A stretch of DNA of 64,000 nucleotides from Bilabrum cf. latius (GCA_965178125.1 OZ237735.1:2108001-2172000), one strand, 5' to 3'. Shown: positions 4,555-37,486, counted from the stretch's first letter. Notes: generated by a model not told the origin, from the sequence alone. Made by a program: numbers and translations.

Positions 4555-7500
4555 ATGCGTTCATCCGTATTGGCTTGCATAGTGGCGTCTGCGGCCATCG
4601 TTTGGCGTGGATTCGCGGGAGCTCCCGTGCCAAAGGATGCTGAGCCTGTCATTCTGGACGTAGGCGACAGCCCTATTGATACTGCTACGACAATGAAAAT
4701 GCGATACAATAGGCATGGGTAGCAGGTCAGCGCTCAGGCCACGGTAGACCAGCTTGATACGACTTTTGCAGCCGAGTACGCTCCAACCGGTGGCACAGGG
4801 CAGTCCGTAAACATGTACGGCGGCCCGAGTGCGGACGTTTTAAAGTAAGTGTTTGCAATTTGGCTGTGCAGGTTGTGCGCTACGTGCTGCTACGTGCTGG
4901 CCAGGAGTCTCCCAGCTGCGCCGTTGCTCACAAGGTGATTTGCTGCTCGTGCAACCCATTTGAATCCAGCATTGCCGGCCCTATTCCCACCTTCATTGCA
5001 GGGTTTCCAGCTGCGAAGACGCTCAGCCAGACGACAGCCCGTTCAAGCCCAGTCTCAACGGCGAGGCGGCTGGCGTCGATTACTTTGCCAGAGATCTGTT
5101 CAAGGGGGTGTTCGAATCGGGCAAAGGCCCGGAACAAGTGGCCTGCAGGTTCAATGGAGTGCTTGGGGGCTCCAAGGCTCCTGTCACTCTCGACGTGCAG
5201 CCGGGGGGTGACGGGCTCTAGCGGATCAGCTCGTCGGTGACGACCAAGCAGTTTGACGCTTCGGAGGAGAGCACGAAGGAGTCGGGCTTCAGCATGAGCC
5301 TGCTCGGCCTGAGCATCGGCACCAAGAAGTCAAGCAGCTCATCCTCCAGCAGCTCCTCTTCTGAGACCATGGCGGTTCAGGAGGTCTCGGTCAGGTCGGA
5401 GGCAGTGGTGGTCACCGAGGCCGCTGAGACGATCGAGCACTGCGACGAGACCGTCGACGCGTGCGTGGAGGCCTACCCCGCCGACCTGCTCAGCGAAAGC
5501 TTCCGCAAGATGGTGGAGGCGCTACCCGTGACCAAGGAGATGCGAGAGGAGACAACCAAGATACTCAAGTAGATGAAGGAGGCAGCCACTGGCTCATCAT
5601 CCAGCAGCGTGCCCACGCAGGGCATCCTCAGCACCATGCCGCCTGGCGTGAGGCAGCCGTTCTACGAGTTCATCGTCAAGCTTGGCAAGGACGTTCGGAA
5701 CCATGCGGTCCTTGGAGTGCAGGCCAACGTGCGGTCCACGGCCATGCTAGAGGACTCCTCCTCGGCCTCCTCCTCCTCGTCCCAGTCCTCCATTTCCGCC
5801 AGCTTCAAGGCCTTTACTCCCGGTGAACTAGGCGAAAAGGACAACAAGATCACCACGAGCACGGTAACGACGACGGAGGACGGCAAGGGCGGCTACCACA
5901 TGCAGGAAGAGGAGACCGTGATGCAGCCCGTGCCTGCAGCGTCGGACGGCGACGAGGAAGAAGGCGGCGGGGTCGCGAGCGAGCTCCTGAGCGGTGCCGC
6001 CGGCGCCGCCGCGAACGCTCTCGTGCCTGGGTCTGGCGCCATCGTGTCTGAGATGGCGGGCCCTGTCGCGGACAAGCTGGTGGCCGTTGCCGAGGCCCTC
6101 GCCAAGGTGGAGGTCCAGATGGAGAGGGCCTCCTTCAGCGGCCAGTCGAGCGAAGGCGGTGCCTCAAAATCCAACACCATCACGACCATCGACGCGAGCG
6201 GTGGCAATCCGTTCGCGATTGCCATTTCGGGCGACCAGATCCTCGGCACGCAGGAGCAGAGCGCGGGGGCGGGCGATGGGATGGACCTACTGAGCAGCAG
6301 CACGCGGCCCATCGCTGACTACGCTGCCTACGTGTCCGACTGCACCCCCGAAAACAGCAAGGAGATGGCCGACGCCATGCCCAAGGTCACTGCATTCACA
6401 CCGAGCACCGAGTCCCAAGGGTCCAAGGAGGATCAGGAGAGGGACACCGTGCTGGGCACGCTCGGCATCCTCGGTGCGAGCGCCAGCGGAGGCACGGCCA
6501 AGTCTTCAGCAGATCTGCTGTCAGCGGCGACCGCAACCTACAGCGGCTTGCCAGCTGCAGCTTCCGCCAGCCAGGGAGAGCCCAGCGTGATCTCGGCCGA
6601 TGCCCGGTCGGGCCTGTCCTTTCACGGGGCCGCGGCACAGGCTGCGTTCGGGCAGTCGTACTCCGTGCAGTCCTTCCCTAGCATCGGGCTGGCGGGGGTC
6701 GTCCTGAGCATGGTTGCATCGCAGAAGAACGGGAAGGGCGCCGCCGCCCTTGGCCTCGACGGCGACGCTGCTGGGCTACTAGTGACCCGCGGAGTCATCG
6801 CCGAGGACGGCTCGTGCGATGACCCCACTGCCGATGTGACGTGCCTGTCGGCTGCGAGCGACAAGGCCCCTCTCGACGCCTGGGCGGAGATCCAGACCTC
6901 CAAAACGATGGCTGAGGCCAAGCACCTGGCCCTGCAGAGGTTCCTCGAGGCAGTGGTGCAGATCGGCTAGTTGCCCATCTCCACAGGTGCCGCCCTCGTG
7001 TACACGACCAGCTGTGTGGCAGGGGATGACGGCGAGTTTCGCTCGGTTTCGATTCAGTGGGCGGCGAAGCTCGGCCTTTTCGTGATGGCCGACCCGAAGC
7101 AGGGCATGTCGTTCCTGCTGGCTGCTGGTCTTGACGGGTGCGACCCGTACGCGGACTTTGTGGACCGTCCGGTGTCCATCGTGGCTCTCACGGACGACGA
7201 GAGCGCGGGATACGGCGCTGCCAAGGTCTCCACCTACCTTGCCACCGCGGCGGCAGTCTCCGGTCTGGTCTAGAACCGGCTATCCACCACGACGAAACAC
7301 ATCGCCGTGCTGCCCCAGTCCGCCGGTGCGCCCAAAGAGCTGCTCACCGAGGACTTCACGTCGATTAGCGACGCTGCTGCGGCTGCCGCTGCCAGCACCG
7401 AATCTCCGTGCGAGGCGATGGGCGGTGCAGTCGCGGAGACGATTCTGTCGCTGGTCCGCCACAACGTCCTCACGTCGGAGGCCGGCGCGCTGATCACCAG

Positions 7501-13100: not shown

Positions 13101-13722
13101 CGAGAGGCGCCGGGGAGACGCGGGCGACTACGATGTCACCGTCGACGAGAACCCCAAGACTCCCTCCCAGAGCCTGTGGCAGCCAACCAAGCTGCCCAAG
13201 CATTAGGGGACAGTGAGTGTGCTCCACGGGAACCAAATCGCCACCACCGCGCCGCTGACGTGCCATCGCGATCCCAAGGGAAGCGTGTTTCCCCAGCTCC
13301 ACAGCGCGTCCATGCGCGACACCGAGTTCACCGCGATTATCAACACAGGCTACGCGAGCAGCCACGGAGAGCGGCACGTCAAGTAGGCCCCGATTCTGAG
13401 CGAGGACGGGAAGGGGTCCCACCTGACTTGCATGCACGCCATTCTTAGCAGCGATGACGCCAAGAGGGTTAGGGAAGCGCTCTTTCCGGCGCCTACGAAG
13501 GTACGGATGCCGTTCGAGAAGACCAAGAACAAGCTCTAGGAGGAGCTGAGTGCCAAAGATCTTGACTACAGCAAGCTGGAGAAGCTGCAGGGTGAGTTGT
13601 AGGTGGCTGAGGCGGCTCTTTTCAATTTCGAGATGACGAAAGGCACATTCGGGAGTGAGAGGGAGGTGATCTTTGATACTCCGACTATGATTAGGTGCGC
13701 GGGGGCTGCGAGGGGGGGTTGA
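10186..13722 (+). CDS. Secreted MACPF/perforin-like protein (~10795-11930) with saposin-like domain (~12427-12770) and possible beta-trefoil-like segment; apparent paralog of upstream gene
   Basis: Signal peptide MRTIGVVVSMCAVYVSVSYA; donor GTAAGA at 10501 and acceptor GCAG at 10794 (a small extra exon near 10570-10700 is possible). The frame continues through TAG 12223, 13204, 13384, 13537 and 13600 to TGA 13720-13722; a further 3' exon is not excluded. MACPF-like: GFGISIGPFAASLS, EGVFVATKVNFGATVE, VKVSGGD, LKSWAEN...VQPIHKM. Saposin-like: CAACLNLV...GC...CESL...ECVAAGFC. Ricin-B-like: FTMASKQSGRCLKI. Confidence 0.68.
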
Positions 13723-14324
13723 TTTGACGAAATAAATTAGGTTCGCTGCTTCTCTATCATGTCTGGCCAGGGCAGGGCGTTTGTCTATTGCATCTCATTC
13801 TCGACAGCAGCATCAGATTCTGGAAGAAATTTTCGAGCACAGCTGCGATTGGCAGCTCAAATATGCAGAGCATTGCGCCGTCTGGTGGCCGTGCATCTCA
13901 CTGCCCAGCTGGCAATATCCAGGTGTTCTGTGCTCTTTGCAAGCAAAACCTGAGGCGCGCTGCCCTTTACGGCCCAGTATCGATTGCAGCTCCGCTTACA
14001 ACTTCCTTATTACATGTGGTCGAGTGATGCAGGTGATCAGGGATCGGATCACCCGCACACCCTCACTTCGATCTGCCCGGTCTGTGTCTTACCACTCTCC
14101 GCGCGCTCCGACTCCCAATTTGAAACATCTCCTTTCAATCCACTGTATCAACCAAATTATCTAATAGCTACCAGAGTTCAGCTGCAGGGCCTGACGTATA
14201 TTCAGTCGTGGCAACAGGATCGCCGCAGCAACAAAGCACTGGATTAAGCAGCGCATATACATTTGCACTCAATATTGACCCGTTTATATGAATGAATTAG
14301 TACAAAGTGAATCAAAGCAGTCAA

Positions 14325-17300
14325 TCACTCCCCTTCGTTCCAGCTCTGCTCCGGCATGGAGGCTAAGGCAAAGTAGGCAGCCCTGCTGTAAGCACTTGCT
14401 CGCCGCACCATCGGATCTTGAGCTCGCACCGCTGCTTCTACCGCACCACGCATCTTTGGCGGCCTGGAAGCTACTGCAGACTGCTCTTCGGAAGCGAACA
14501 ATCTGGTTTGCCGTTCGGCTGAGTCCTGCGTGAATCGGACTGACTTTGGAGTGTTCCCCGATTGAGTCACGACCTGAGGCTCACCGGCCCCGGTAGCGAG
14601 CGGCAATGGACCCTCTGGAGCTTGATTTGCTGCACCTGATACCATGTTACTTCTTGCAGACTTCCATGCTCTGGTCATCAGCACTGTATTCCGCCTGCCA
14701 CGAGTCAGGCTCGCTGGAGCCTATTTCATCTAGGCTGAAACTCCGCCTTGCTGTGCCAGCAGCTTTAGTATCAACCTTGCACTGACTGCTTCGGATATAC
14801 TGGCGCCGCCTATGTCGGTCCTGAATCCTCGTATGTGAACTACAGCGGCCGTGGCAGCGTGCATTGCTGACACGGCATCTCGAAGACACGCAGGGTGAAG
14901 GACAACAAGCACGCCAGTTCTCCCTTCTGATCCAGGATCCGGGGCGGCACCGCGACTGCGCAACTCCTGTAAGTCGCTATTCTGCAGTACGACCACATTG
15001 ATGTCGTCCAGATGAAACAGTTTTGAGTTGCTCTCGATCTCATCCTGGACCACAGCACGTACCAGGATGCATCGGATCGAGTTCCTCGATTGCTGGTTGA
15101 GGAAACGGTTCTGAGGCTGCAGCAACTTTGCCTGTACCATCTAGTAAGCCTTTGTGCCGGTGTAAAGGACGCGTACTTGATTAATCGATGCAGGCCCCAG
15201 AGATGCAGCTGGTGGTTTCGAGGGTGCGCCCGTTGCCGTCTCATGCAACAGCCGCTCACCCTGCGAAATAGAAGCAAGCCGTTCGGCAGCAGCTTCTACT
15301 TGATCGAGAATCGTTGGAAGCGGGTGCTCGCGGTACGGCAACACCATTTGAACGTCCGCTGCAGACTCATCATGAACAACATCTGGCTCCGTCTTGGCCT
15401 CTTCGTCTTGAGCCATCGCAGGTGCTCCCAGCAGCTGTGTTTCCGTGTCACTGGTTTTGGCTGCAGAAGGTTCTGAGGCCCAGTCACTTGCAAACGCAAG
15501 ATCGGGTGCCCTAGCATCAAGCTGAGCCTCCTGCTTACTAGCCTGGTCTTCTGCATCTTGACTTTGCTCCTGCTGTTGCTCAGGTGCTGATTCCTACAAC
15601 GAGAAGCTTGCGGCTGCAGCTTGAGTTGGAGTTGCAGGTAGATTGAAGACGGGTTCCGTGTCCGAGAAAACGATGAGGTGCAAGTCTTGCTGCTCCTGTA
15701 CCTGATTTTTATGCATTGCAGACCGCTGTCGAGTCTACCGCTCAGACATGCGTTGCCGTCGAGCGGCCAATCGAGCCTGCAGGCGGAGCTGGTGCTACTG
15801 TCTATCGGCCTCGAGCCGAGCGTGAAGCTGTGCTTGATCTGAATCGAACTGCTACAGCAGTGCATCCCTCATCTCAGAGCTGAGATGTGCTGACTGCTTC
15901 TGAAGCTGATCAAGTGCAGCTTTCTTGTCTTGCTCAAGCATTGAGCGCTCGTGATCTGCCAAAGCTTGCTGTCGGCGGATCTCAGCCAGGGATTGTGCTT
16001 TGCGGTCCTGCTCGAGCTCTACCATCTGCGCAGCCTCGCGTTCCTCGAGTGCCCGGGCTTCGTCCTCTTGCCTCTTCTTCAGCTCGTCCAATTGCAACTG
16101 TGCCTCTTTGAGCCTCGATGCTTTGAAATCACGGAGTGAGTCAGCCAGCTCGGCAGCTTCCCTTGCCGCAATCATTTCAAGCCGTGCCGTCGGTGCGACC
16201 TGCTGCACTGCATCAATCAGCTCCCGAGCCTACCTTGACCTCAGTGCGGCCTGTTCCACCCCAAATTCAGCCTTCAGCCGTTTCTCGACCTCAATGCATC
16301 TTGACGCTCGCACCGTCTCGGCTTCTCTCCGCAGCTCTTTGATATGTGCCTGCTCGGATCTGCTGGGCTGCCCATGCCCGAGTTGCATTGACAGTTGATC
16401 GATTCTATCAGCAAACTCTGAATCAATCTCCAGCCTACACATCCGAAGTCTCTCCTGAAGTCTCTCCGCTTGTTCTTCAAGCAGCTGCTGCAACTCTTTT
16501 CCATGCCGCTGAATTACTATGGTTCGGATGGCGCCGGCAGCGGTAGCGTCTGCTTGTGGTGCTCCGACATCCTATCCGTGAGATCTGCCAGAGGCTTCTT
16601 GCACCCTTCGAATCGCAGCTACCTCTTGCTGCAGCTGCTGCCTACTTGCGTCTTCGAGTAACTCATTGGTCATGCGACGCATGGATTCTACTTGCTCCTG
16701 CGCTTGCTTCTCCTGCAAGAGTTGAACCTTCCTTGCCTTGCGGGCCTCCAACCTGTGCTTAAGTTCCCGTGCATGGCGGTCGGCTTCTTCTCCCTAACGT
16801 CGCGAAAGCTCGACTTCGTTTTGTGCGGCTTTGCGTTTGATGGCTTCAGCTTCCGACTGGAGATCAATGGAACCAGCTCGTTCTCGCAGACTCGGGTCGA
16901 GGCTTTCGTGAGCTTTCGCTTGGGCAGCACCTGATCGAAGCATCTTGGCGACCTCTTCCTCGGCTTCGCGGTCGGCTTCCTCCCGAATGCGTTGCATTTC
17001 AGCTTCGTGCCGTCTTCGCATTGCGTCCAATTCAGCGGTGGGAGCAGCACGTGAAGCTTCCTACCTAGCTGCGTATTCGTCGTGCTGGCCGCTGACCTCT
17101 TCTCCACGAGTGGATCCGGACAAGTCTGCCAACTGTCCAGTTACCGCTTCCTGCCGATCTGGAGCGATAGGATGCCGAAGGTCAGAGACGGAATTCGAAA
17201 GCGAAGCGGGCCTTGCATCTGGCTGTGCAGACGACTACGAGGCTGACTACGCAGCGTGCCGTGCATTTTGCAGCCTTGCAAGCTGTGCGATGCGGCGTGC

Positions 17301-20300
17301 TTCTAGGCGGTGCTGCAAACTGCTGGTCTGAGCGGCTGCAGCCTCTTGCTCCAGACGACTCAATTCTCTCTACTCAAATTGGGCTCTCGTCTTGATGGCC
17401 TCAAGCTGTGCGGCAATGTCACCGTTGGCACTGACGTTGTCACCGCCGGCACCGTCGTCCAAGTCAGCAGAGGCAGGACCTGTACCGGGCCGCGAGGGTG
17501 CCTTTACTGCAGTCTATGCCTCCATCGTTGCCGCCTTCGCCTCTTGAAGGTGCTAGAGACGCTAGATGCGCGCGAGTTTCCTGCGTTGCAGCTTCAGCTG
17601 CATACTGTTGGTCTGCTCGCGCAGCTCCCGTGCTTCCATGCCAGCGAGCAAAGCAGCCTCCCTTTCGGCTCGTGCCTTGAGTTCCTCCGCTGCTTCTTGG
17701 AGTACGATAGGATCATCGATCAACCGATCTGACTACTCTTGAGCGAGAAGTTGGTCCTGCAGCTCCTTGACCTTGCCAGTCAACACGTTGACGGCGGCAA
17801 TATCCGGGTCATCCTCATCTGACCGTCTCTCGTGATCACTCTCACGAAGTACTTGCCGCAGTCTGGTAGCTGCCTCTTGTCTCTCCTACTGCGCAGCAGC
17901 CAGCCGCTGCAACCTGGCAATCTTGCGTCGCTACAGCCGTATCTTGAGATGATCTTCCTAGCTGATTCGTTCGGCGTCCTCTAGAGTTGCAAGATCTCTT
18001 AGTTCCGCAGCAAGTCTGGCTTTGACCTCATCCAACTTGGCCTTGGGATCAAAATCTGGCAATAGTACGTCAGCTTCGCTATCTGTCGGTGCACGAAAGG
18101 ATCGAACACAACTCTCGCATTCCATGCTGGCGGCATGAAGCCCCTCGTGGGCATGTTGCTCCCGCTCAAGACGAAGGAGCTTGCGCTTCTGCAGGCGGGC
18201 TGCAAGTTCACGAGCCTGCCTCTCAGCGTCTGCTGCCTAGCTGGCTGCCAATTGCTCCTGGTTGTCGCGCGCTTCTTGCTATAGCGCCGCTGCTGTGGCT
18301 GCAAGTGATGCATCATCGCCACTGCTGTCCTGAAAGGCTTGTGGTCTGACAATCCCGGAGTCCTCTTGCAGTGCAGATACAGCTCTATTTGCAAGCTCCA
18401 TTATTGCTGAGCTGTCCCCATGATCACCGGAGCCAGCTTCGATGCTTCCATCAGGACCATCGGCGGAATCACGTTGACGTTGCGCGCACGTCCTGATGGC
18501 CTCTTCAAGCTTCTCAACTCGTCTAGGGTCTGCATGGCGTGACATCAACTCGCTCACCAGCAATTCTCGGGCTTGCACTTCGCAGTCGTTGCGCTTTAGT
18601 GATGCTTGCTCGGTTTCCCTCGCGGTCCCGGTGGAGTTCTTCTTGAGGCTCTGCAGCTCCTCTGAGCACAGTTGCTCCTGACGAGCTACCATTGCTTTCG
18701 CCTGCCGCAGCGCGGCTTCTCGAATTGTGTCACTGGATGCTAGCCTAACAATAGCATCTATCTAACCCGCTGCTGATGATGCAAGCCCGTGCACATGCTC
18801 TAATGCCCTCTAGACTGTATCATGGCTGGATACACCAGCTGTTTGTAAGGCGGCCACAGTCTCGCGCATGGCTGCCCAGCAACGGCGAGCGGGCTCGGTA
18901 AGACGACGAGAGCTATCGCCGGCATTCTCCGGGGACGAAGCTTTGATATCCGACAGAAGGTCTTGGATCTCTTCCGTTTCTGAATTGATCTTTTGAGCGG
19001 CACCCTACTCTCGCTCCAGTTGTCGCACTCGCTGCGAGTGCGACCGCTGCAACCCAGCCACGACTCCTTTCGAACCCGTGTTGGAGGCATGGATGGCAGC
19101 GACAGATTTCACGTCGTGCCTAAATGGTGTGGTCAGCTTGAACGTGTCTGGGCTGGTCTCGCGCAGAGCGGAATCACTAGAGGGGTCCTCGTCAGACTGG
19201 GTAGACTCGCTGTCCTGGTTGAGTTGATCACCGTCCGTGCCATCATCCAAAGCCTTGGACACTGTTTGTCGTAAGCTTCTCTCTAGCGCTTCAAGCATGG
19301 ATGATAGTCGATTTGCTTGCTCGTCATTGTCTTGAAAACCACTAGATGAGGTCTAAACATGCTTGTTGGACTCTGCTATCCCCTTGAGACCGCTTCGAAC
19401 AGCCTAAGCGCCTACCTCAACAGCATGCATATGCTCCTCTGCAAAAACAGGTGATGTCCGGCAGCGCTAAAGTGCTTGCTGTAGCTCTCCGAGAGTGGCA
19501 ATTAATTTTGCAAGCTTCAAAGTGCCAGATGTCTCCGACTCTCCAGCCAACCTGTCGATGCCAGCAACGGCAAGAGATCCTAAAACCGCTGCTCTTGAGA
19601 GCAGATTCAGCTCCCTTGAAACGGATCGCACTGCCGAGTTGAACGTATCCACCCCGTCGAATATAGACTGTTGCGATTGGTCGAATCCCTCTAGGCCAGC
19701 AAGAAGTACAGTCGAATCTACTGAGACATCTTGTACCCTGCGGATGGCTTGGTCGCAAGACTTGACGGCATTTGCACCAGCACTATGCAGTTCCACGAAG
19801 CCTTCGATCAGCTGGCGACAGTTAAGAGTACTCATGTCCTGGGATGGTAGCTCCGAAAAGTGTATAACGCTCTTCTGCCCAGCAACAGCATCTAGAGCAA
19901 CTTGCTGCAGACCACCCGCTTGCCGCATTCTGGTGAGCAAGTCAGATCGAAACTGTCCCAGGAGCTAGAACATGCTCAACGCATCCTGCACAGCCCTCAA
20001 TATTCCACCAAGAGCGTCTTCAAGGCCGCTCTCTGTGAACTGCACAGCAGCTGCAACGCTTTCAGAGGTTGCATTCCGCGCATTGTGCATGCCAAGCAGG
20101 ATACTTGCGACCCTGCGGACGCCAGCGAACTACTGGTCTACACCATCCTTGACTCGAGCGATCCCATCCTTTTGCTCGGCCAAACCATGTTCAATCGCGG
20201 ACCGATGGTGCTCAAGCCGCTCGACTATCTCCCTTAGATCGATGTCGTCGTCGTCCCAACGAGACAGATCCAGCTGTTCATTTTCAGCCTTGATACCCAC

Positions 20301-23300
20301 ACTACTTGATGGCTTTTCCTCCGATTCTGGGGGACTGCAACCTGAGATTGGTACAACCTAGGCGGAGCCGGGAAGAAGCGACCAACGCTTGCTTGCTGTT
20401 GGCACAGGTAGCACTTGGACTGATGTGGCCCGGTTGTGCAAGCTGCTCAGGTCTAGCAGTAGCTGACCTGCCTTGTATCCTTGTCCAGGCCTCTAGCTTT
20501 GTTTGCTTTGGAGACAAGTTGACGCATACCAGCTGAACGAGCCAAGCGTGCTCGCTGGTGACCAAGTGTTGTATTCAATGTATGCAATGCTGAGAATCGC
20601 TGCACCAGTGGACAATACGAACCCCGCAAGTATCAACGTCAGGATTCTCCAGTCGAGCGATGTGATGATCTGTTGATCGGTTCTAGCTCCAAGCATAATC
20701 AGGGACTTCGTTGATACTGGCACAATTGGGGCCTCCACAGGGCAAGTGGTCCCCGGCTAGAGAACAGCAACTACGGCAACCGAGCCAGGAACGCGACTCG
20801 AAGAGAATACGTGTATCCCGGGTTGGTTCATCTGGGTGACTATAATATCAACACTCGACCCTGCACCTGCTAACGTTGACGCCTCTCGAAATACCCCAAA
20901 ATCGAACTCGGGATTTGTGTTCAAGAGTGAATCAGCGTCGTACATGGGCAGTCCCCCATCCAGCAACGTGAGGTCAAACACAAGCATCCCACCCTCCTCC
21001 ACGCAAAGAACTGGGTTGGGTATCAGGATTGGAACGTCAGTTTGGGATGCATGCGACAGTACTGGCGAAGTACCATACACCCCGGCAGGTCCAAAATTGG
21101 GATCTAGCGCAATGAACAGCGTTGGACACGCTGCACTTGCACCCAGCGTGCTTCTGCAGGAAGACGGAGCTTGGCCAAGACCATACACTTGTTGAACAAT
21201 ACCTCGGCTTTCAAGCGCAAACGCTTTCACTTGTAGCGCCTGGTCTGCCTGCCGCTGGGCTGCCAGCGGGTCAAAGCCGCCGGCCGAGCCCTACAAGCGC
21301 CTCGCCTGAACGGTTACATTAGTGCTGAGCACGCTGTCCGTGGCAAAATCCAGGGATGCTAATAAACGATACGACGCAGAAGCTTCTCTGCACGACGCAT
21401 CGCACAACTCATCGATGGCAAGTACCCCAGGGCATTTGCAAAGCCCAGTTCGCTTGTCAATCGTGATTGACGTAGAGTCCGCTACAGTCAACGCACCAGT
21501 TGCGTTGCACTATGCTTCACATGCACGCAAAGTTTCGCTTGGATCATCTTGTCGAATGCAGGAACCGCGATGCCAGCGAACGCCGGTACCAACAGGGCAT
21601 TCGTCGAACACCTCAGGCTCGCAGTCAGTAGTGTCGTCGGTCTCACGGTCGGTCGGTGAATTTGGACCAGGCCAGTGCCTGGGTTTACAGACACAGCTAG
21701 AATCAGAAGGTTGATACACACGATTCAGACCAACGCACTGGCAACTGGATGCCCCGCTGCCTGATGTAGCTGAGGACGGGCACGGCTGGCATCCACTGGA
21801 GCCCGGAGAAGCAGCGTATGTACCTGGCGTGCAATACTTGCAGGTCTCGAATGAGACTGCGCCTATTGCAGCTGAAGCCATCCCAGCTGGGCATAGACTT
21901 GGCTCGGCGGATCCTGCAGGACAGAACTCTCCTCCGGTGCACATTCTGCCGCCGTCGCTTTCGATTCTAGTTGGCAAAGCTGACCTCGTCCCCCCTGTAC
22001 AGACGTAGCCAGCCGGGCATTTCTGGCATTCGGTGGAATTGGAGGAGTCACTGAACGTTCCTGGAGGACACATGGAACATACTGAAGAGATGTTGGTTGC
22101 ACCACTAGACAAGCTAGCCAGTCCGTCTGCAAACCATCCGGCGGGGCAGTATTGTGGCCTGTTGGATCCTTGTGGGCAGTATCCGTACCTCGGGCACGGC
22201 CTGGGAACCAAAGTAGGACCTGCCTCTATACCACCATCACTGGATGAGTTCACCAAAGCTCCAATCATGGCCGCAGGAACTTGGCCGGTTGAGTTCAGCA
22301 GCAGGTCGATAAGGTTGGCAGCACCTGCAGCATCACCTGGGCAGTAGAAACCAGCTGGGCATGGGGGGAATCCGTCCAAGATGAATCCACCCGTCCCAGC
22401 CTTGCACCATGTGCCTGCAGGACACTAGAATGGGCCACCTGTGTCAGGTCCCGGTTCGCACAGTCTTCCAATGGGACAATGCAGAGGATTTGAGGCAGCT
22501 CTAGGGCAGAACTAGCCAATGGGGCATGGGGTACACCCGCCATCATCTGCGAGACCGCTTCTCCCAAAGGCGAGAATCTACGTCGCGTTGAAACTCTCAT
22601 AGACGCGTCCTTGCGTCTGCCTAAAAGATATCTCGCTCTCATCTGCAATGGCGTCTCCATTTCCATGAGTATGCCAGTGCTTAATCGCAAGACTGAAGCT
22701 TGTCCCCCATCCATCAGCTCTGTACCCTCCAGCAAGAGGTCGATACCGTCCAGTCGGGCACTTGGACGGTGCGGATGCGCCTCTAAGGCAGTAATGTCCA
22801 GGTGGGCATTGCTCCACCAAGCCTGGCGTGGCATGTCTTGCACACACATATCCGGGCTCGCAGGGCTTGCAAGCCATGCTGTCTGTCTGAAGATACTCGC
22901 TGTTGTATGTGCCTGGTGGGCAAGGCACAGCATACTAGCTGTTCTCCGTTGATGTAGCATTCGTTGTGACATTCACACCAAGTGCTGGACAGAAGTATCC
23001 TGGTGGGCATGGCGATGGCACCGGGTCTCCTTCTCTGCAGAGGTATCCTGGTGGGCAAGTAGTGCACTCTTGTGCTGATCTAGCACCCGGATCTGCCCTG
23101 AATGTTCCATTTGGGCATATCGTTGGCACTGCAGATCCCTCTGGACAGTAGTATCCGGGAGTGCACGGCCCAGAGCTTGGTAAAGATGCCTCGGTCGGAC
23201 GCGGTCCAGAATTGCCCTGCCCGCAATAGTACCCAGCCTCGCACGGTCCTGTTGTGAATCCACTACCAGCACAGTACGAGCCTGCATTACATAGTGCACA

Positions 23301-26300
23301 CTATGAAGCTCTCTCTAATCCACGCTGTGTACCTCGTGATCCTGCCGGACAACGTGTGCCGTTGTGGCTTGAGCCAATGGGGCAATACGAACCTATCGGG
23401 CATAGCTCCACTGCATTTGCAGTCGCCGGTCCGCACACACGGCCAGCCGGGCACGGTGAGCAGTAACTGGACCCTTTGGCAGTGGCCAAAGACCCAGGGG
23501 GGCACTGCTTCTCTATAGTACTTCCAACAGTACAATAGTGTCCTTCTGGACATGCATACCCACCAGAGCTGTTAGACGGTTTTGGTGTCGCAGATCCGCC
23601 CGTGCACACGTAGCCTGCGGCGCACATACCTCCAGTGTCGTCACCCAGTTGACTTGCGTTGACGTAACCGTCTAGAGCTGACAGCTGCGAAGCAATGAGC
23701 TCGGTTGTGGCTATGGTGGAGTCAGCAGTGAGCACGGCGATCCTTGCCAGCAAGCCGCCTGGACCGGGAGTGCTCCCTAGCACTGCGTCCAGCGCCGACA
23801 GCCTCCATACTACACCAGCGGTGCTAGACTGAGAGGCCGACCCATAGGAAAGGGAAACGTTCAGCAACGCTGCCGCAGCTGCTATCGCAGATCGCGGGAG
23901 TGGTGTCGGTACCATTGTGCCTGCTCCGCACCAGAAACCGGGGGCGCACGGCCCTTCTGGCGCTGTGAGCGCCGTTCTACCGCAGTAGCTACCAGGCGTA
24001 CATAAGTTGCATTGCGCTTGACTGATCAGTCCGCTCGAATTGCTGAATGTGCCACTAGGACATGGGTCCTCACGCCCCCCTGCGTTCCCACCCGGGCAGA
24101 AGTATCCTTTAGGGCACATCTTCGGGGTCACATTCGGAGCACCAGTAGATGGTTCGGGGCAATGAAAGCCACCTGGACAGGCGTTACAAGCACGTAGGCC
24201 TGTACTGTTGCCGAATGTGCCTGGTGAGCATGGCTGAGGGCTTGCGGCGCCAGTTGGGCACGCATATCCTAGTGGACACGTTCGGTTCGGGTAAACAACC
24301 CCTCCGGGGCAGTAGTATCCTTCAAGACACAGCTGTGATGGACTGAATGTTGCAAACTCAGGACAGCTGTACCCAGGCAAGCATGGCTTGCACTCGTCAG
24401 AGGAACCAAGGCCAGTGACATTCGAGAAGAACCCGGGATCACAGGGCTGCGGCACACTGGTACCCATCGGGCAATAGTACCCCGCTGGGCACGCGCTGGC
24501 GCTGCTGTCTCCTGCCCTCGAGCCATTCTTATATACTGTTCCTCGAGACGAGCACAAGTACCCGGGCATGCACATGCCGGATGGTGCGACCAGGCCCTCG
24601 GACACGCAATAGAAGCCGACTGGGCACGCTTCGCACTGATCTTCGTCACGCAGTCCAGTCTAGTTAGAGAACGTACCGGCTGGACACAGCGATGCAGAGC
24701 CGTGCCGCGTTCCCTCTTTACAGTAGCGTCCAGCTGGACATTCCACCAATCCGGAGGTATTCCAGCCACACTAATACCCAGCTGGGCAGGTATCACATTG
24801 CGAGCTACCATGCACAGAGCTGAAAGTACCTGGAGGACACGGCAGGGGCACTGCAGATCCCGTTGGGCAGAACGACCCAGGAGGGCACAAAACTCCAAAA
24901 TCAGAGGTGCCTTGCAAGCAATAGTACCCAGCAGGGCAGCCCACTCCCGTTGAATTGAGCCCAATAGCATTGCAAGCCCGTCCTGGGGGGCACTGGATGC
25001 ATGCACTTTCCGAGGTAGCCCCAAAAGAGGGGAGGTGCGTGCCAGTGGGACATGCCAGGGGAAATGAGGATCCAGCTGGGCAGTAGTGCCCAGGAGGACA
25101 AACATCACCCGTCATATTTTGGAGCTGCAGCGCCTGCATGAGCAACCCGACGCTTGAAATTGGTGATTGTGTTCCTTGTAGCACAATGTACCCGACTGCT
25201 TGACTCATAAGACCGACATATCCTCGTGAAAATCCTATATCTGGAGCTTGGGCCGCGCTGCCTCCTCTGCAGAAATGACCAGGCGCGCACTCGCCTTCTG
25301 GGGCAGTCAGCCCGTGTACGCTGCAGTACTTGCCAGGTGAACATGACGCGCACTCAGCTATGCTTGCCAAATCTGTGCGGTTGCTGAACGTTCCAGGCAA
25401 GCAGGGCAGTGCAGTGGCAGGCTCACTTCCGACGGCGCATGCATACCCGGCGCGGCAAGGCTGCGGCACAATGCTGCCAAGACTACACATTGTGCGGCGT
25501 GGGCACACGCTACAAGTTTCCCGGCCCGTCATGTTCTAATACGAGCCTGCTTCGCATGGCAGCGGTTCTCGGCTTCCTTCTGGACAGAAGGATCCACGAT
25601 GGCACTCGCGAGGCCGCTCTGCCTCCCGGCAGAATTTGCCAGGCGGGCATGCCTTGGTTGGACTCTCTGCTCCAATGGTGTCACACACGTACCCTGCTGG
25701 GCATGGTTGGCATGTAGACACATTATCTGCTCCAGTAGAGTTGGAAATTGTCCCAATTGGGCATGGTGTAGCCCCCGCCGAACCTGTTGGACAGTAGTAA
25801 CCAGCGGGGCATTCATCTCCAATAGTTCCATGACGACCAGACTCTCCGCCAGGTCTTGCAGTATGCGACCCTTGCAGACAATAGTACCCATGATCACATG
25901 GTCCTGTTGGTATGCCGCCACCAGTGCTGCAGAACTGCCCGGGGGGACACGGCGCGGGGTGTCCTGTTCCACTGGGGCACAGATCGCCACCATTGCAACG
26001 GCCGCCCATGCCGCTCGCCTCTGCAGGTGTGGGCGAGTTAGAGTTACCAGAACAGAACCAACCCTCATCGCAGTCACCATCCGGCCTTACATTGCCAGAA
26101 CCAGCACAGTACTTTCCACTTGGACACCCAAGGCAGTCCTCTAGTGCAACTTGTCCGGTGCGATTGTTGTAGGTTCCCGGAGGGCACAAATTTTCTAACG
26201 CAGAGCTGGTGCCTAGCGGGCAAAAACTACCAGGTGGACACATGTTTTGCCCGCCTAGTGCTGCTGTTGACTACGGGCAAAAATAGCCCTCCGGACATGC

Positions 26301-29300
26301 TGTGCATGACAACGAGCCCCAGTCCAGGCTGAATGTTCCTGCTGCGCACCTTGTCGGTACCGAGGACCCATTCTGACAGAACGTACCTGGCCAGCACTGT
26401 CCTGCTACCAGCTAGCCTGACGATACGAGGCTCCACAAATTTCCTATTGATTCATTGTAGCCCGACATGGGGGCCGGCTCGATAGATCCCACCCTGCAGA
26501 AGTGCCCAGCGTGGCACAGTCCTTGCGGGGCAGCAAGTCCAACTACGCCGCAGAATTGGCCAGCAGGGCAGCTGATGCAGGCATCAATACCATTGCCCTG
26601 CTCCCTGTCAAGGTAAGTTCCACGAGGGCATGGGGTCGGTGTGGCACTGCTCGTGTTGCAGAATGTGCCCGCAGGGCACGGTCGTGACAGTGGTGCGCCC
26701 GATCGATCCATTCCAAGGCTATTCGTTGATCCCGGCGGACAATAAAATCCTGCGCTGCAGTTGCCTGCGGGGACAATAAGTCCGATTTGGTCACAAAACG
26801 AACCAGCAGGGCACAGCGTGCAACTGGTCCTATTCTTCAGCATCATGCTTTTCCCGATGGTACCAACCGGACAGAGAGTGGGCGAAGCGCCAGTTCCCCC
26901 CTCGCAGTAGGCTCCCAGTGGACACGCGGCTGGAGAAGATGTCCCAAGCCCGGGGCAGTAGAACCCCGCCGGGCACTCGATACAGCTAGATTGTCCGCTC
27001 ATACTTGTGTACGTTCCGATCGAGCACGGCTGTGGCACTGCAGCACCAGCAGAACAAAACGTGCCAGCAGGGCAGCGACCACCACCGTCTGTTTGATTCA
27101 GCGGCGTCGCTGACAACGATCCCCTGGAGCAGTAGTACCCCTCAAAGCAGGGACCACTTGGCAGCGCCAGCCCGCCAGCACCACCGCAGTATTGACCAGG
27201 TGGGCATGGCTAGCAATCGCTCACAGACTGACCTGCGAGCTCACTTCGGAACGTGCCGATCGGACACGCTTGCGGTGTGTGGCTCTACTAGGGGCAATAG
27301 TGCCCTGGTGGACACACATCTCCAAACGATTCGCTTACGGGATCTGCAAGGGGTGCTCCACCTACACAGTAGTGCCCAGCCTTGCACGGGCCGCTCGGAT
27401 TAGAGAGTCCAGAGCCAGCACAATACATTCCAAGCGTACAATTTGTGCATGATGCCTATCCGAAAGACCCACCTTGCGAATTGAATGTCCCTGGCAGACA
27501 CTATGTGGGCGTGACCGAACCAGCCTCACAGTAGGTTCCAGGCGGACACGTTTTTGGTGTCGTCATGCCAATCTCGTCGCAATACTACCCAGACGTGCAC
27601 GCAGCACACTCTGCTTGCCGCTCCAAGTTGTTAAACGTTCCCGTGGGACATTTGATAGGCTCACTGGCTCCACTTGGAGCAAAGAATCCAGGTGGTGCTA
27701 TGTGCTGCCTTGGCGTCTCCGCTGCACCAGTGCAAAAGTGCCCCGGCTCGCACGGTCCAGTGGGGCCTGGCAAGGCTGTACCGCCACAGTAGTATCCTGG
27801 TAAACAAGCCAAACAATCACGCTCCGTCGCTTGCCCGGTCACGTTCAGGAAGGACCCAAGGGGGCATGGCTGGGGCTCAAAGCTGCCCCTGGGGCAATAC
27901 CCGCCGGCGGGGCAGATGTCGCCGTACTCTGGAGTTAGTGGCCCATACCCTGAGACTGAGTCAAACCACCCGGGAGGACCCGGGAAGGAGGGCTGCGCAG
28001 TCGGCGAGCCTTCCACACAAAAGAACCCCGGATCGCACTCGCCTCTTGGCCACGTCAGGCCGGTCTCGTCGCAGTACATGCCTGGAAGGCAGAGCCTGCA
28101 CTGATCCGAAGAAGTCAGCCCACTACTATTCCCAAATCGTCCAAGAGGGCACGCTGTCGGAAGACGTGATCGGGCAGGGCAATACGATCCCCGTGGACAC
28201 TCAGTCTCGGCCTCGGACGCCGCCGCACAATACGTGCCAGCTTGGCAGTGAATACAATCGCTCTGGTTTTCGGCGCCCTGACCGGGGAAGTGCGTCCCTG
28301 CTGGGCATTCCTCTTGAGTGCTGGTTGTGGATCCTGCAGGGCAGTAGTACCCTGCACTGCACGACCCAGTCGCGTCTATGGAACCAACCAGACAGAAGCT
28401 CCCAGCTTCACACTAGTAGCACGATCCGGACCCTGTGCTATCCTGTCGAAAGCCAGGAGCGCACTTTGTGGGGCGCGCAGAGGCTTCAGGGCAATAGTTT
28501 CCCGCAGGACACAAGTTATCAGGCACTGCAGGTGGGCTTGACATTCCCGATGGGCAGAAATAGCCCTCCGGGCACCTGTGCTGATCACCCATCCTGGCAT
28601 AAGACAGTCCGGTCTAGTTGCAGAAGTGACCACCGAGGCACTCGCTGCACTAGTCTTCGCCGCTCCTGCTGTACGTTCCGGATGGACATGGAGATGGCAC
28701 AACAGTCCCGTTGATGTCGTTGCACACGCTTCCTGCTGGACACACTTTACAGTATGGGAACTCATCAGGGCGCTCGGACGGCCGGGATGCGCCCTCTGTC
28801 TCCTCCACGTCAGTGTACGTGCCAGGTGCGCATGGCTCTGGGGCAGCTGACCCAACTTCGCAGAACTAGCCCGTGGGGCATGACAAGCACTCGTCCTGAG
28901 ACCGCAAGCCAGTACGGTTGCCGTAGGTGCCAGCCCGACACGGAAACTCATCGGCTCGAGTTGTGTTCAGCGGACAGTAGAAGCCCTGAGGACATTCGTC
29001 TGTCACGTTCGATTGTCCACCCGTGCAGTAGCTTCCTGCAGGGCACGCGGAACACTCGTCTTGCGATGCAAGATTGTTAAATGGAGTGAATGTGCCGGGC
29101 TAGCACTGGTTGTCCTGTGGGTGCTTGGTTCCGAAAGGACAGTAGTGGCCCAAAGCACACTCTTCTGGGGGGTTAGAATTCCCACCCACACCGAAGCCAC
29201 AAGCAAAGCCCTCGGGGCAGATGGAGCAGTTTGCTGCAGATTCCAGGAATGTCTAATCCGTGAATCGGCCCGGCGGACACGGGTGCTCGCTCGAGTACGC

Positions 29301-30869
29301 CGAGCCAGGTGGGCAGTAGTGCCCCACATCGCACGCACCGTTTGGCAGGTCGAGACCGGTAGTGTTGCACACCGATCCTGCGATGCAGTCCCGACAAGCC
29401 TCAGCGTCAGCCGATCCCTCTACGGGGTTGTACTTGCCTACAGGACACAGGATTGGAATGGTCGCACCGGCCTCGCAGAACGTTCCGTTCGGGCAAGTTG
29501 TGCACTCATCCGGGTTGCCAAGGCCCTCTGTAGCCCCGTACGTTCCACTAGGGCAGGACACGGCAGTATCAGTCCCATTCTCACAAGCGGAGCCGCGAGG
29601 ACACAATTGAGAAAAGCCATCTACCCAACCATCTGATGGGCACACGAAGCCGCGCGGGCACGGTATGCAGCTGGCGAAGGATACCTAACCATCCAGCGGC
29701 TGGTAGTACCCTGCTGGACAGGGGTAGTCGTTCGCTGAACCGGTTCCGGCCGGACAGTAGTGGCCAGCGGGACAGATCCACTCCTTTTCAGTGACTGTGC
29801 AGTACGTGCCTTGAGGGCACTCCTGGCAAGCCTCCTGCTCGTCGCGACTGCCCGTGCGATTCGCTGGCGTAGTGCCTGCAGGGCATTGAATCAAGTTTCC
29901 AGAAAGAGCAGGCTCGAACCAGAATCCAACTGGTGCTTCTGAACCCACAGGTGAGGGCTCGAATGATCCAGCGGGGCAGTAGTACCCAGGTGCACATGGG
30001 TCGCAAGCTGTGCTGCCATTGCCCGCGAATCTACCTGCAACGCATTGTGTGGCACCAGTGGCCGTGCACGAGCTCCCGCGGGGACACAGCAAGCACTCAG
30101 TCTGGTCAGCAGTGTCTTGGTAGAAGCCAGGCTCGCACGGGATCTGGTCCATACTGGGATCAGGACACTGATGCCCTGCCTGACAGTTTGTGCACGTGGA
30201 CTGTCCACCGGTTGAAAACCTGCCAGTGGGACACGGCGTTCCAGCTGCATCCAGGACTGGACACTCGAAACCAGCCGGGCACGGCGTGCATGACGTCTGG
30301 TTGCCCAGAGAGTACGTCCCGGATGCGCATGCCTGTGGATTCTCGTCGGGCTGGCCAACCATGCTATTCGTGTACCGCAAAGGGCAGGCCGAGCCAGCCG
30401 GGCACTCAGTGCACGACGTTGCGCCGCCAGTGTCCGCTGTGTAAGTGCCCGCTGGACAAGGAAGCACCTAGCTGCTGTTCGTGTACGGGCAGTAAGATCC
30501 ACGCGGGCATCGCTGGCAGGTCTGTGAGTTGACTTCGCTGTAGAATCCCGGCAGGCATGCCTCGGGATGTGTCACACTGGTTGACGTGCACTGAAACCCA
30601 GCCGGGCAATCGTTGCACATGGTGCTACCAGCCGGGGCATACTGGCCTGGGCTACATTCGATCTAAAGGGCTACGTCTGGATATGGGCATGCGTATCCTG
30701 CGGGGCATGGAATACAGCTGTCGGTTTCGTAGTTGCCAGTATTTGCGTTCGTAGCGCTGCCATTTCCAGTCGGGCGTGTTCCCAGAGGGCACTGCTGCAA
30801 ATCAGCCTTTGCACAGAACAGGCATACGAGGGGTATCAATACAAACAAGTTTCCGCTCAGCAGAGGCAT
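14325..30869 (-). CDS. Giant type I membrane protein A (~5,514 aa): signal peptide, long GCC2/GCC3 (ephrin-receptor-like) Cys-repeat ectodomain, conserved juxtamembrane domain, TM helix, coiled-coil tail
   Basis: More than 20 ORF-track fragments lie in one frame and each junction checked is TAG. ATG 30869 starts MPLLSGNLFVLIPLVCLFCAKA; many CPxGxYC/CxxC repeats follow, then LLNTNPEFDFGVFR, TM ILTLILAGFVLSTGAAILSIAYI (~20575-20645) and an E/R/Q/A-rich tail. Ends at TGA 14327-14325. No intron is needed. Confidence 0.88.
27821..28091. repeat. Near-identical tract shared with 56170-56440 (offset 28349)
   Basis: Both encode CLPGMYCDETGLTWPRGECDPG...FLNVTGQATER; the flanking sequence is diverged. 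Confidence 0.93.
28752..30659. repeat. Near-identical tract shared with 57101-59005 (offset 28349/28346), interrupted by a diverged patch at ~29775-29940
   Basis: Direct nucleotide comparison shows only scattered substitutions over ~1.7 kb. Confidence 0.93.
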
Positions 30870-34986: not shown

Positions 34987-37077
34987 TCACTGCGCCTACC
35001 CTGCCATCTCTCCCTCCAGAACCTCCACACATTCTGAATGCCCGCCTATCCGAGCCGCCTCTAGCGCTGACATCAAGTTCCCCGCAACACTACCGCTGGC
35101 CTCAAGCCCACCAGCAAGCCTGCCTAGCCTCAGCCGCTTGGCCAGCTCTAGCGGCCTGCCGTGGGCAGCTGCCTGAAACACCATCCCCGCGTCTCGACGA
35201 GCCTCATGGGCTCGTCTGAATCCACAGAGTTGCACTCTCCTGTTCATTCGTCGGACCGGGCCCCTATTGAGAGCATCGAGTACGACCGCCCGGGCCTCGG
35301 ACTTCCGAAACACGCGCATCGGGCCAACGTCGCAGTACCGAACGAGCGTTTCAAGAACGGCTCCGAGGGGTAGCAACTGCTCAGGTTTAAATATTTTGCC
35401 CTGCAGCTGGAGAGAGCGCAGCATGGGACTGGCGGACACCACGTCGCATAGGAGACCCATGGTTTTCTTGTCGCGCGGGAGCTGGGCGAGCTGCAGCTCA
35501 TCTAACGATTTCTCCCCAGAGGACACACCTCGCACCAAACCGCCAAGCAATTGCTGGCACTGATTTCCCTTCAGGTCCAGAAGATACAGCGAGAGCACCC
35601 TGAGCCTCGGCATGCGCTCCAGAGCCAGAGCCAAATCTGGGACATTTTCGGCGTGGTGCTCCCGGGGCAGCCGAAGCACCTCCAGGCTTGTCAGCTGCTG
35701 CAAGTGCCGCGTCGATCCTGGCGGTAGCTTCATGCCCTGCAGGCACAACGACCTGAGCGCAGTGCATTTGGTGCTGAGAGCATCCAGGAGCTGGCCCGCC
35801 CCGGTTGGTGCGAGCTGGTACCCGGATCCAAACTGCAACGATCTCAGGGAGCATCCAGCTTGGAGCCGTTCCGCAAATGCAGCCAGCTAACGCTCGACAT
35901 TAAGCCCAGTTTGAATAACTAACGAATCTGTGGTTGCACCCGGCCTAACAACATCTGCTAGATCTGCAAACTGGCTAGGAGGCAGCTCGTTTTCCATGTG
36001 GCAGACTGGCAGCTGCACATGCCCAATCCCATGGTTTGCATCCTTGAGCGCCTCAATAATTCGAGCCGAGTCAAAGCATGTGACGTACGCTCCGTCGACC
36101 ACAAGACTCCTCAGCCCGGGCCGGGTGCCACTGCTACAGTGCATCTCGTCCGCCCACTGAGACTGGCCGTGGATCAGTTCAGCAATGCAGACAGATGAAA
36201 CCACGGCAGGATCAGGGGCCCTGATAGTAATCTACAGCTTCTGCACCGATTTTCTCGTGAGTAACGCGGCCAGAACGTCCTTCAAGCCATCGCCATACCC
36301 GCCCTGCGACAGAGCAAGGACTAGCGAGATAGCCTTCAGACCCGGCATGGCTCCATCTCGCAGCGCCGCAGCAAGACTCTTCAGAACAGCTGATGACGCA
36401 AATGTACCCTGCAGATTCAATGCCTCCAACCGCTCGGCATTCGAAAGCTACTTGCCGAGGCCAAGGTCTGCTGCCAGTGGCTGCCCCGCATCATCAGGCC
36501 TGCCCACGGCGCCCTTTACCACGGCAGCAGCAGCACGAGCAGCGTGCGCATGAACTAAATTGAGATGTTGCAGGTAACGTAGGTGCGCCAAAGCGCCCCC
36601 ATTCAGCACAGCCTCGATTTCACGCAGGTAGAACTAGGATCCAAATCCCAACGATAGCTTCGACAGGGATGTCATCCGTCTCATTGCCGAGCACGCTGCA
36701 CTGAGTCCCACCGTCGAGATGGTGTGGTCACTCCGAAGTTGTAAGCTAAAGCTTTTGAGCTTTTCAATGTCTGCTGAATCGTATAGTGCCTCTAGCGCTG
36801 GCGTTGAATGCGCTAGCGCCACCTCGAGGTGATCTGCCGCTGCGGTCGACAAGTAGGTGCGCATGACCGATTCCATGAGATTCTATTCCAAACCTGTTCC
36901 CATGCTACTAAGTGATAGAGTCTAGAGTGTGAACCTGTGGCGCTGCAATAGCCGTACAAGCTGCTGTGCAAACCCGTTCAGACTACCACCGCTTGCGAAC
37001 AAAGATAGGGAGTCCAAACGCTCATCGTCCGATAAACTAAGAAGCTCTGTACTGGATGAAACTAGGGCTGTAGGCAT
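34987..37077 (-). CDS. Leucine-rich repeat (RNI-like) protein, ~696 aa, with a possible C-terminal ankyrin-like motif
   Basis: LxxLxL repeats (LSKLSLG, LRSLCLQG, LTSLEVLRL, LRVLSLY, LRSLQLQG). Four fragments share one frame joined by TAG (36634, 36448, 36232, 35887, 34996). ATG 37077; TGA 34989-34987; SALEAARIGGHSECVEVL near the end. Confidence 0.72.
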
Positions 37078-37293: not shown

Positions 37294-37486
37294 GTGAATC
37301 TGTGAAAAGTCGTATCTTCATAATCAATCGTCATCATCACCTTCGAGACCTCGCCTTGGACCCTCGCCCAAAACTAATTCTCTGTGGCACTTATCGAGAC
37401 TTCCGAGCTCACTCAGGATGATCCAGAAACGCCTATACCCCGCCGTGGTGGGGTTGTGGCGCAACTGAAACTCCTGGAGCCTCGGG
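37294..37486. repeat. Diverged copy of the 178-bp repeat, directly adjacent to copy 1
   Basis: GTGAATCTGTGAAAAGTCGTATC...CGCCGTGGTGGGGTTGTGG...CTCCTGGAGCCTCGGG; collinear with many substitutions. Confidence 0.9.

Follow-up and report, generated by a model that had tools for sequence, protein, structure and literature searches.

MACPF proteins that carry diverse accessory domains occur widely among eukaryotes, and the perforin-like group includes perforin-1, complement C6-C9, MPEG1/perforin-2 and the apicomplexan perforin-like proteins. In complement, paralogous MACPFs co-assemble. The saposin-like proteins (saposins, NK-lysin/granulysin, amoebapores) have a domain of roughly 80 amino acids (aa) with six Cys and three disulfides, in which about 25 residues separate the fourth and the fifth Cys. 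In the pleurotolysin-type systems, the MACPF is paired with a small lipid-binding aegerolysin, as stated in the accessible parts of PMC4318580 and PMC10975569. The window studied here, a 64,000-nt stretch of DNA from Bilabrum cf. latius (GCA_965178125.1 OZ237735.1:2108001-2172000), contains two neighbouring genes, gene 1 (4555-9973) and gene 2 (10186-13722), which the initial annotation had described as a pair of secreted MACPF-like plus saposin-like proteins forming a candidate two-component pore-forming system. The observation was confirmed and the interpretation partly supported. Gene 2 most likely encodes a very divergent MACPF member that carries a so far undescribed accessory domain rich in Cys and is hidden from databases by a code in which UAG is read as glutamine, and the saposin-fusion and two-component readings have had no support so far.

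The gene 2 protein shares with the MACPF/perforin-like proteins a signal peptide, an N-terminal head directly after it, the GG-Xn-W motif, a strand-rich C-terminal region after the head and, in its family, language-model features nearest to those of MACPFs. In contrast to these proteins, its profile scores lie under the cut-off, the Y, T/S and H of the signature are replaced, and about 120 aa, among them a run of 13 Ser, make up the candidate second hairpin region. Behind the head come a long helical stretch with Cys residues and the six-Cys domain, which has no known family, and the gene 2 family is known solely from a few environmental fragments. With the pleurotolysin/ostreolysin-type systems and the complement C8 alpha/beta-C9 hetero-oligomer, the pair has in common that two adjacent genes would code for secreted proteins and that one or more of these is MACPF-like. 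Whereas the partner of pleurotolysin is small, the gene 1 protein has about 1750 aa, no Pfam family and no MACPF hallmarks. The best explanation, with an estimated probability of about 0.55, is that gene 2 encodes a secreted divergent MACPF-type protein of about 1080 aa and gene 1 a second secreted protein. The N-terminal 350-380 residues of the gene 2 protein most likely form a highly divergent, perforin-type MACPF domain. A helical Cys-containing region that ends in the six-Cys domain, a strand-rich region and a short coiled-coil tail are proposed to follow.

The MACPF-like region was delimited to aa 27-377 (10870..11922, plus strand) from the Pfam profile PF01823, the Atlas features and the conserved segments; gene 2 residues are counted from position 10792 (976 aa). 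The N-terminal half of the region is conserved with the environmental fragments P0005 and P0008, and its C-terminal half was aligned to positions 76-195 of the 214 of PF01823. This profile was the best Pfam match in two cases and in the same register: within gene 2 aa 1-388, aa 201-377 matched profile positions 76-195 with 18.1 bits (E=0.0032), and the fragment P0002 matched positions 123-196 with 19.3 bits (E=0.0014). Two of the 11 proteins scanned matched MACPF, namely those in which this stretch of the gene 2 family is present. The pieces of gene 1 and its relative P0016 gave no PF01823 match at E<=10; since these Ser-rich pieces of gene 1 remained without a match, Ser/Thr richness alone is not its source. 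For the half of the domain without a Pfam match, evidence came from the fragment P0005, aligned to gene 2 aa 27-115. The language-model features of P0005 in the Atlas placed 15 of its 30 nearest clusters in the MACPF set (top scores 0.91), and eight of the ten best family-bearing matches agreed on MACPF. The Atlas result is treated as a lead, not as proof.

According to the accessible part of PMC5483515, the MACPF signature Y/F-G-T/S-H-X7-G-G sits on a central strand, and the Trp of the GG-Xn-W motif is conserved in pore-forming MACPFs and absent from the developmental ones. In gene 2, the GG-Xn-W motif was found as VSGGD...(21 aa)...W357 (11785..11871, plus strand) and is conserved in P0002; the spacing is GG-x21-W in both proteins, with GG334-335 and W357 in gene 2 and GG133-134 and W156 in P0002. 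This Trp is one of only three in the 976 aa of gene 2 and likewise one of three in P0002. Neither gene 1 nor P0016 has the motif. The initial annotation had also pointed to degenerate signature-like segments. The degenerate signature-like strand EGVFVATKVNFGA (11389..11427, plus strand) keeps the spacing of the signature, G-x-x-X7-G-[GA]; gene 2 reads E-G-V-F-X7-G-A (G-x-x-X7-G-A) at this place, and P0002 reads ..M-Q-X7-G-G. The Thr/Ser-rich segment at 11596..11784 (plus strand), composed of TTTVHTVTTEHG, AVSFSFGT and the 13-Ser run, is conserved in P0002 and could represent the second membrane hairpin (TMH2). Further conserved segments of gene 2 are SGFG..GPFA.SLS and LCVRADVG. The order of elements in gene 2 is signal peptide, SGFG..GPFA.SLS, strand-like EVEIVM..YYEIGL, signature-like strand, Thr/Ser-rich segment of about 120 aa, GG-Xn-W and strand-rich C-terminal region, which fits the general MACPF layout given in the part of PMC5483515 referred to above. 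The agreement of three independent weak signals (Pfam, Atlas and the GG-Xn-W motif) suggests a MACPF domain in gene 2.

Several results weigh against this assignment. The curated gathering cut-off of PF01823, 21.5 bits, was narrowly missed by both gene 2 and P0002, and the whole gene 2 exon scored only 12.9 bits (E=0.12). The matched region is Ser/Thr-rich, and this composition may add to the score. No Pfam family was above threshold in either protein, and gene 1 exon 2 (1656 aa) had no Pfam family at E<=10. An Atlas score at the level of 0.9 was reached by 4-10 per 100 shuffled proteins; the top cluster of P0005, which shared 139 of 256 features, contained only 12% MACPF members. The strict signature was not matched in gene 1, gene 2, P0002 or P0016, and in gene 2 each of the residues Y, T/S and H is replaced. 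No solved MACPF chain was matched at E<=10 by sequence or profile, and the sequence searches of solved structures yielded noise only (E>=2.4), with no MACPF or saposin chain.

The structure predictions were also of no help to the assignment. AlphaFold2 modelling of the 976-aa gene 2 exon from a 7-row alignment resulted in a mean predicted local distance difference test (pLDDT) value of 32.1 and no usable model; the Cys domain (aa 530-672), modelled from an 8-row alignment including gene 1 and its relative P0017, reached 40.1, with low-confidence helices after the second and the fourth Cys. The poor quality was due to the very small alignment depth, as each column represented only two to four diverged lineages. 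The alignments were limited in this way because the N-terminus of P0002 was placed wrongly by MAFFT whenever P0005 or P0008 was included. Foldseek comparison of both low-confidence models with the PDB gave no matches at E<=0.001; the 450 and 54 matches at E<=10 are meaningless at this model quality. The pLDDT of the Atlas's own model of the fragment P0004 was 0.36. The C-terminal region of gene 2 (12860..13719, plus strand) appeared in the low-confidence AlphaFold model as rich in strands at first and then as a helical tail resembling a coiled coil, in which aa 907-949 had pLDDT values of 61-63. A weak ABC_tran_CTD match of this region (E=0.045) was recorded with Pfam. With the evidence on both sides, the MACPF assignment of the gene 2 family is considered somewhat better than an even bet. 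The MACPF claim of the initial annotation thus holds to this extent for gene 2, with the sub-threshold Pfam matches, the Atlas features and GG-Xn-W, and is not supported for gene 1, which has neither a MACPF signal nor GG-Xn-W.

The relatives of gene 2 were determined by an exhaustive phmmer search of 1.84 billion cluster representatives, in which the 976-aa exon gave nine matches at E<=1e-3. All nine (P0001-P0009) come from environmental assemblies and are unnamed fragments with lengths of 89-559 aa. P0001 and P0003 are 95-97% identical to gene 2 and lie on the same contig of 95,040 bp. P0002 (38% identity, gene 2 aa 204-757) shares a 3,233-bp contig with P0008, whereas P0004, P0005 and P0007 are found together on a contig of 6,599 bp; P0006 and P0009 are the other fragments. 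Beyond the near-identical P0001 and P0003, the relatives represent at least two more distant lineages. The C-terminal region of gene 2 is covered by P0006, P0009 and P0015. For gene 1, close relatives were found only: P0016, P0017, P0018 and P0019, with 95%, 82%, 90% and 69% identity, respectively. In these searches the best 8000 candidates by shared words were scored due to low-complexity saturation, and distant relatives of gene 1 were possibly missed. The orthologues of both genes are located on one contig of a close relative, the one of 95,040 bp, and the distant relatives found are gene-2-like only. Among 185,579 prokaryote species genomes, 93 pattern matches were obtained with pattern search plus tblastn and a single-protein query, and none of them was confirmed. 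No further paralogue was detected in the window by tblastn. Judged from these searches, gene 2 belongs to a very small, lineage-restricted family, and gene 1 appears to encode a lineage-restricted protein of about 1750 aa. A side observation concerns the rate of change within gene 1: its Cys-domain region (aa 1181-1347) is 82% identical to P0017 and the N-terminal aa 53-655 are 95% identical to P0016, both of them fragments from the sister contig, therefore the Cys-domain region seems to evolve faster.

The window is eukaryotic nuclear DNA with a G+C content of about 60%. In its ten long open reading frames (ORFs), 133 in-frame TAG and no TAA codons were counted, indicating TAG as a sense codon, and TGA is the terminator in all ten. 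The amino acid read at TAG was compared with the 95-97% identical fragments P0016 and P0001: at five of the six TAG sites of both genes with coverage, the fragments have Q, and at the remaining one S, within a locally diverged stretch. These comparisons support the reading of TAG as glutamine in the source protist, although the single TAG of the branching enzyme gene in the window stands opposite a Leu of the human enzyme. The latter is one site in a distant homologue and carries less weight than the near-identical fragments. When the region 3500-15000 was read with table 11, it was broken up, with 36 ORFs reaching 100 aa or more when the two strands are counted together. With TAG read as Q, the frames extended to 1621 and 1000 aa, and the dependence of both genes on this code was thereby borne out; the in-frame TAG codons number one in gene 1 exon 1, ten in gene 1 exon 2 and five in gene 2. 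The relatives are known in databases solely as fragments (89-603 aa), therefore gene calling with the standard code shatters such genes, as had been proposed. As a side observation, TAA is apparently neither sense nor stop in the window, though CAA is a common Gln codon; this TAG-only pattern is unlike the usual coupled reassignment of TAA and TAG. No tRNA gene was found in the 64-kb window.

The evidence supports both loci as real genes, each with an intron and each encoding a protein whose N-terminus is signal-like; their coordinates, shared orientation and distance of 212 bp agreed with the initial annotation. Gene 1 exon 1 (4555..4844, plus strand) starts with the ATG at 4555, contains one in-frame TAG and encodes the signal-like N-terminus MRSSVLACIVASAAIVW... 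It is followed by a phase 2 intron of 157 nt (4845..5001, plus strand; GTAAGT...TTGCAG). The splice junction yields ...DVLK|VSSCED, and upstream of 5002 the frame of exon 2 is interrupted by stops. Gene 1 exon 2 (5002..9973, plus strand) has 1656 codons from 5003, including the ten in-frame TAG, and a TGA stop; it consists of a Ser-run region, a long Ala/Gly/Ser-rich middle, the Cys domain and a C-terminal region. Gene 2 exon 1 (10186..10500, plus strand) starts with the ATG at 10186, encodes the N-terminus MRTIGVVVSMCAVYVSVSYA... and ends with ...VSCEVDQA. The 294-nt intron in phase 0/0 (10501..10794, plus strand; GTAAGA...CGCAG) contains in-frame TGA and TAA. The last exon (10795..13722, plus strand) comprises 975 codons with the five in-frame TAG and a TGA stop.

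The coding character of the exons was assessed by G+C content at third codon positions (GC3) and by codon-usage log-odds, for which four other genes of the window served as the training set. The GC3 of the large exons was 0.79 (gene 1 exon 2) and 0.82 (gene 2 last exon) compared with 0.51-0.56 in the introns and the spacer. The log-odds were positive in the proposed frames only, first exons included: +0.12 and +0.146 for gene 1 and gene 2, respectively, and between -0.23 and -0.33 in the other frames. In all three frames the gene 2 intron had non-coding values. The 212-bp intergenic spacer (9974..10185) showed no coding-type GC3, and its log-odds were negative in all frames; neither it nor the flanks of the two genes contained another candidate ORF. 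Splitting gene 2 into three exons, the middle one at about 10564-10700, was dismissed, since a frame-keeping donor is missing and the codon statistics of this stretch are non-coding. The mean Kyte-Doolittle hydrophobicity of residues 5-20 was 1.96 for gene 1 and 1.74 for gene 2. The signal peptides of the initial annotation are therefore retained as hydrophobic signal-like N-termini, from which both proteins would be secreted. The motifs VSSCED and VSCEVD, GFSMSLLGLSIG, GFGISIGPFAASLS and VSFSFGT with the Ser run, as well as the pattern GQCAAC...C...C...C-x2-AG-x-C of both proteins, were located as reported there.

The two proteins have a six-Cys domain in common. In gene 1 it covers exon-2 aa 1204-1339 (8612..9019, plus strand) with the pattern C-x2-C-x24-C-x11-C, two extra Cys and a terminal C-x5-C (CQSAGMC); in gene 2 it covers aa 546-658 (12427..12765, plus strand) with C-x2-C-x25-C-x12-C-x63-C-x5-C (CVAAGFC) and a conserved GH upstream. 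The common pattern C-x2-C-x24/25-C-x11/12-C-...-C-x5-C, which was set after viewing the sequences, occurred once per protein and in none of 20000 shuffles of each. The gene 2 domain is conserved in P0002, P0004 and P0015, and the domains of the gene 1 and gene 2 families align over four Cys plus a TPQ motif. Saposin-like proteins have a similar C-x2-C start and C-x5-C end with two comparably spaced Cys between. Unlike these proteins, the domain described here has 113-136 aa, a long insert between the fourth and the fifth Cys (63 residues in gene 2 and 88 in gene 1) and no SapB match.

The saposin-like domain of the initial annotation was not borne out. SapB_1 and SapB_2 were absent at E<=10 from both whole exons, the two C-terminal pieces, P0002, P0004 and P0015. 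The gene 2 Cys domain had no Pfam match, and the NCBIfam scan gave noise only, including BSAP5a at E=3.1. In relatives, the segment between the second and the third Cys is Gly/Asn/Asp/Pro-rich rather than helical. The Atlas features of P0004 peaked at 0.79, which is in the noise range, with unrelated families and no saposin among the families listed. Among the titles and the beginnings of abstracts of the literature matching both terms, no fusion of MACPF and saposin-like domains was described. A deaminase-like Cys domain, considered due to the toxin-deaminase neighbours of P0004 in the Atlas, was dropped: the scores did not exceed 0.79 and no conserved H/C-x-E precedes C-x2-C. A conserved His is found a few residues upstream of C-x2-C in both genes, and metal binding may be an alternative to disulfides. 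The shared domain is best called a six-Cys domain of unassigned fold.

The kinship of the two genes was examined at several levels. BLASTP of gene 1 against gene 2 gave E=0.39 in the GQCAAC region, hhalign probabilities were 4.65% and 5.4%, and the gene 2 family profile scored negatively with gene 1 in hmmsearch, none of these results being significant. For a four-region hhalign comparison, the regions were picked assuming collinearity. The collinear match was the best one in each region. The P values were 0.27 for GISIGPFAASLS against GFSMSLLGLSIG, 0.054 for the signature-like strand through TTTVHTVTTEHG against KDVRNHAVLGV...ITTSTVTTTEDG (31% identity, 67 columns), 0.018 for GQCAAC against GQCAAC and 0.23 for PLTCH against PLTCR. 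Combined by hand with Fisher's method, they resulted in p of about 0.01, which is suggestive only. The first exons of the two genes compared with E=0.038 over 19 aa. Due to the shared Cys pattern, the Cys-domain alignment and the collinear regional matches, distant paralogy is judged the likelier relationship. Gene 1 would then probably be a very diverged paralogue with an Ala/Gly/Ser-rich insertion of about 700 aa and no MACPF hallmarks. The earlier view of a divergent pair has short collinear motifs as its sole basis and was not upheld by the whole-protein comparisons.

In the ranking of explanations, the divergent MACPF stands before a non-MACPF origin, which is the main rival, followed by a non-lytic MACPF and by a two-component toxin. 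It is possible, though rather unlikely, that neither protein is a MACPF and that the two are instead Ser/Thr-rich and probably glycosylated secreted proteins specific to the lineage, with a place at the cell surface, in the extracellular matrix or in an extrusive organelle and with Cys-stabilised helical modules; the MACPF similarity would then be an effect of composition and chance. The sub-threshold MACPF scores without exception, the missing strict signature, the long Ser runs and Ala/Gly/Ser-rich stretches of both proteins, and the lack of PDB matches and of a fold from the AlphaFold or Atlas model are all consistent with such proteins, and matches at noise level (E=0.01-0.1) appeared in the same Pfam and NCBIfam scans. 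However, two methods, two parts of the domain and three lineages converge on MACPF, the GG-Xn-W motif is conserved with its rare Trp, and the Ser-rich gene 1 pieces have no MACPF match. An improbable variant retains the MACPF fold of the gene 2 protein and assigns it a non-lytic role in development, signalling or trafficking, comparable to those of the astrotactins, BRINPs and Torso-like. Non-lytic MACPFs exist and their hairpin regions may be unequal, as noted in the accessible part of PMC5483515, and by our reading the candidate hairpins of gene 2 are unequal as well, with about 120 aa in the second and about 30-45 aa in the first. Yet hairpin boundaries need a structure, and gene 2 keeps the GG-Xn-W Trp, which the same part of PMC5483515 describes as absent in developmental MACPFs.

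The proposal of the initial annotation, according to which two MACPF plus saposin-like fusions hetero-oligomerise to attack membranes, is very unlikely. The genes are adjacent, co-oriented and both apparently code for secreted proteins, their orthologues occur on one contig of the close relative, and the first four Cys and C-x5-C of the shared domain resemble the saposin spacing. These features are outweighed by the missing SapB matches, the C4-C5 distances, the composition of the C2-C3 segment and the P0004 Atlas result, and gene 1 is without MACPF signal. The spacer of 212 bp is ordinary for this compact window, in which the other spacers have about 270-600 bp, and only gene-2-like distant relatives were found. 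The aegerolysin partner of pleurotolysin in the accessible parts of PMC4318580 and PMC10975569 likewise has no counterpart here, as no Pfam family, aegerolysin included, was matched by gene 1 at E<=10. Just as improbable is a new kind of two-protein membrane-attack system in which gene 2 would provide a divergent MACPF barrel and gene 1, as a degenerate paralogue, a non-inserting targeting or scaffold subunit, with the shared six-Cys domain as a new binding module. The module would possibly be a His/Cys metal-binding or saposin-related one that binds a membrane or a receptor.

If gene 2 encodes a divergent MACPF, the following mechanism can be proposed. The protein would be secreted through its signal peptide, and its C-terminal part may bind the target membrane, by analogy with the proteins in the accessible parts of PMC5483515 and PMC12474679, the latter of which lists mammalian MACPF proteins. 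The protein would then oligomerise, perhaps aided by the C-terminal coiled coil, and a beta-barrel would arise as its two hairpin regions unfurl. The proposed hairpin regions are the segment around GFGISIGPFAASLS and the Thr/Ser-rich one between the signature-like strand and GG-Xn-W. By the same analogy, the gene 2 protein would form pores; its biological role may be attack by the protist, such as the killing of prey, defence, or another one. The gene 2 family would then represent a very divergent MACPF branch from a protist lineage reading UAG as glutamine, and the six-Cys domain a new Cys-rich accessory domain common to two neighbouring secreted proteins. A specialist would be little surprised by one more MACPF with an accessory domain. 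Recoded genomes hide whole families, as proteins of this kind are fragmented by standard annotation and remain invisible in databases.

The window also contains other genes. On the plus strand, a KN/TALE homeobox protein (3-1661) and a class I/II aminotransferase (2507-4282) were identified with Pfam; ahead of the aminotransferase domain the frame is open but has a non-coding look, and introns are probable in this gene. The remaining ORFs are on the minus strand. The 1,4-alpha-glucan branching enzyme (31350-33779) matched the human enzyme with E=1.9e-214, and about 195 aa (roughly aa 73-266) lie between its two matching stretches. A 696-aa ORF at 34987-37077 contains seven in-frame TAG, is Leu-rich by eye and had no Pfam family at E<=0.01. 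An ORF at 37413-38957 has about 18 tandem copies of the 14-aa unit GAAWGRPPGEEGTE and is adjoined by an ORF at 39276-41186 that weakly matches reverse transcriptase (RVT_1, E=0.0032); together, they are probably a retroelement remnant. Two giant intron-free ORFs were found by translation and the Pfam family Ephrin_rec_like, one of 5514 aa at 14325-30869 and the other of more than 7558 aa at 41324-64000, which runs off the window. Both of these Cys-rich ORFs have hundreds of Cys repeats of the CPxGxxC type, with Ephrin_rec_like E values down to 4e-43, a hydrophobic stretch resembling a membrane span, and very long Glu/Arg/Ala/Gln-rich tails of coiled-coil appearance. Their translations are nearly identical by eye over long stretches, and the two are apparently recent paralogues.

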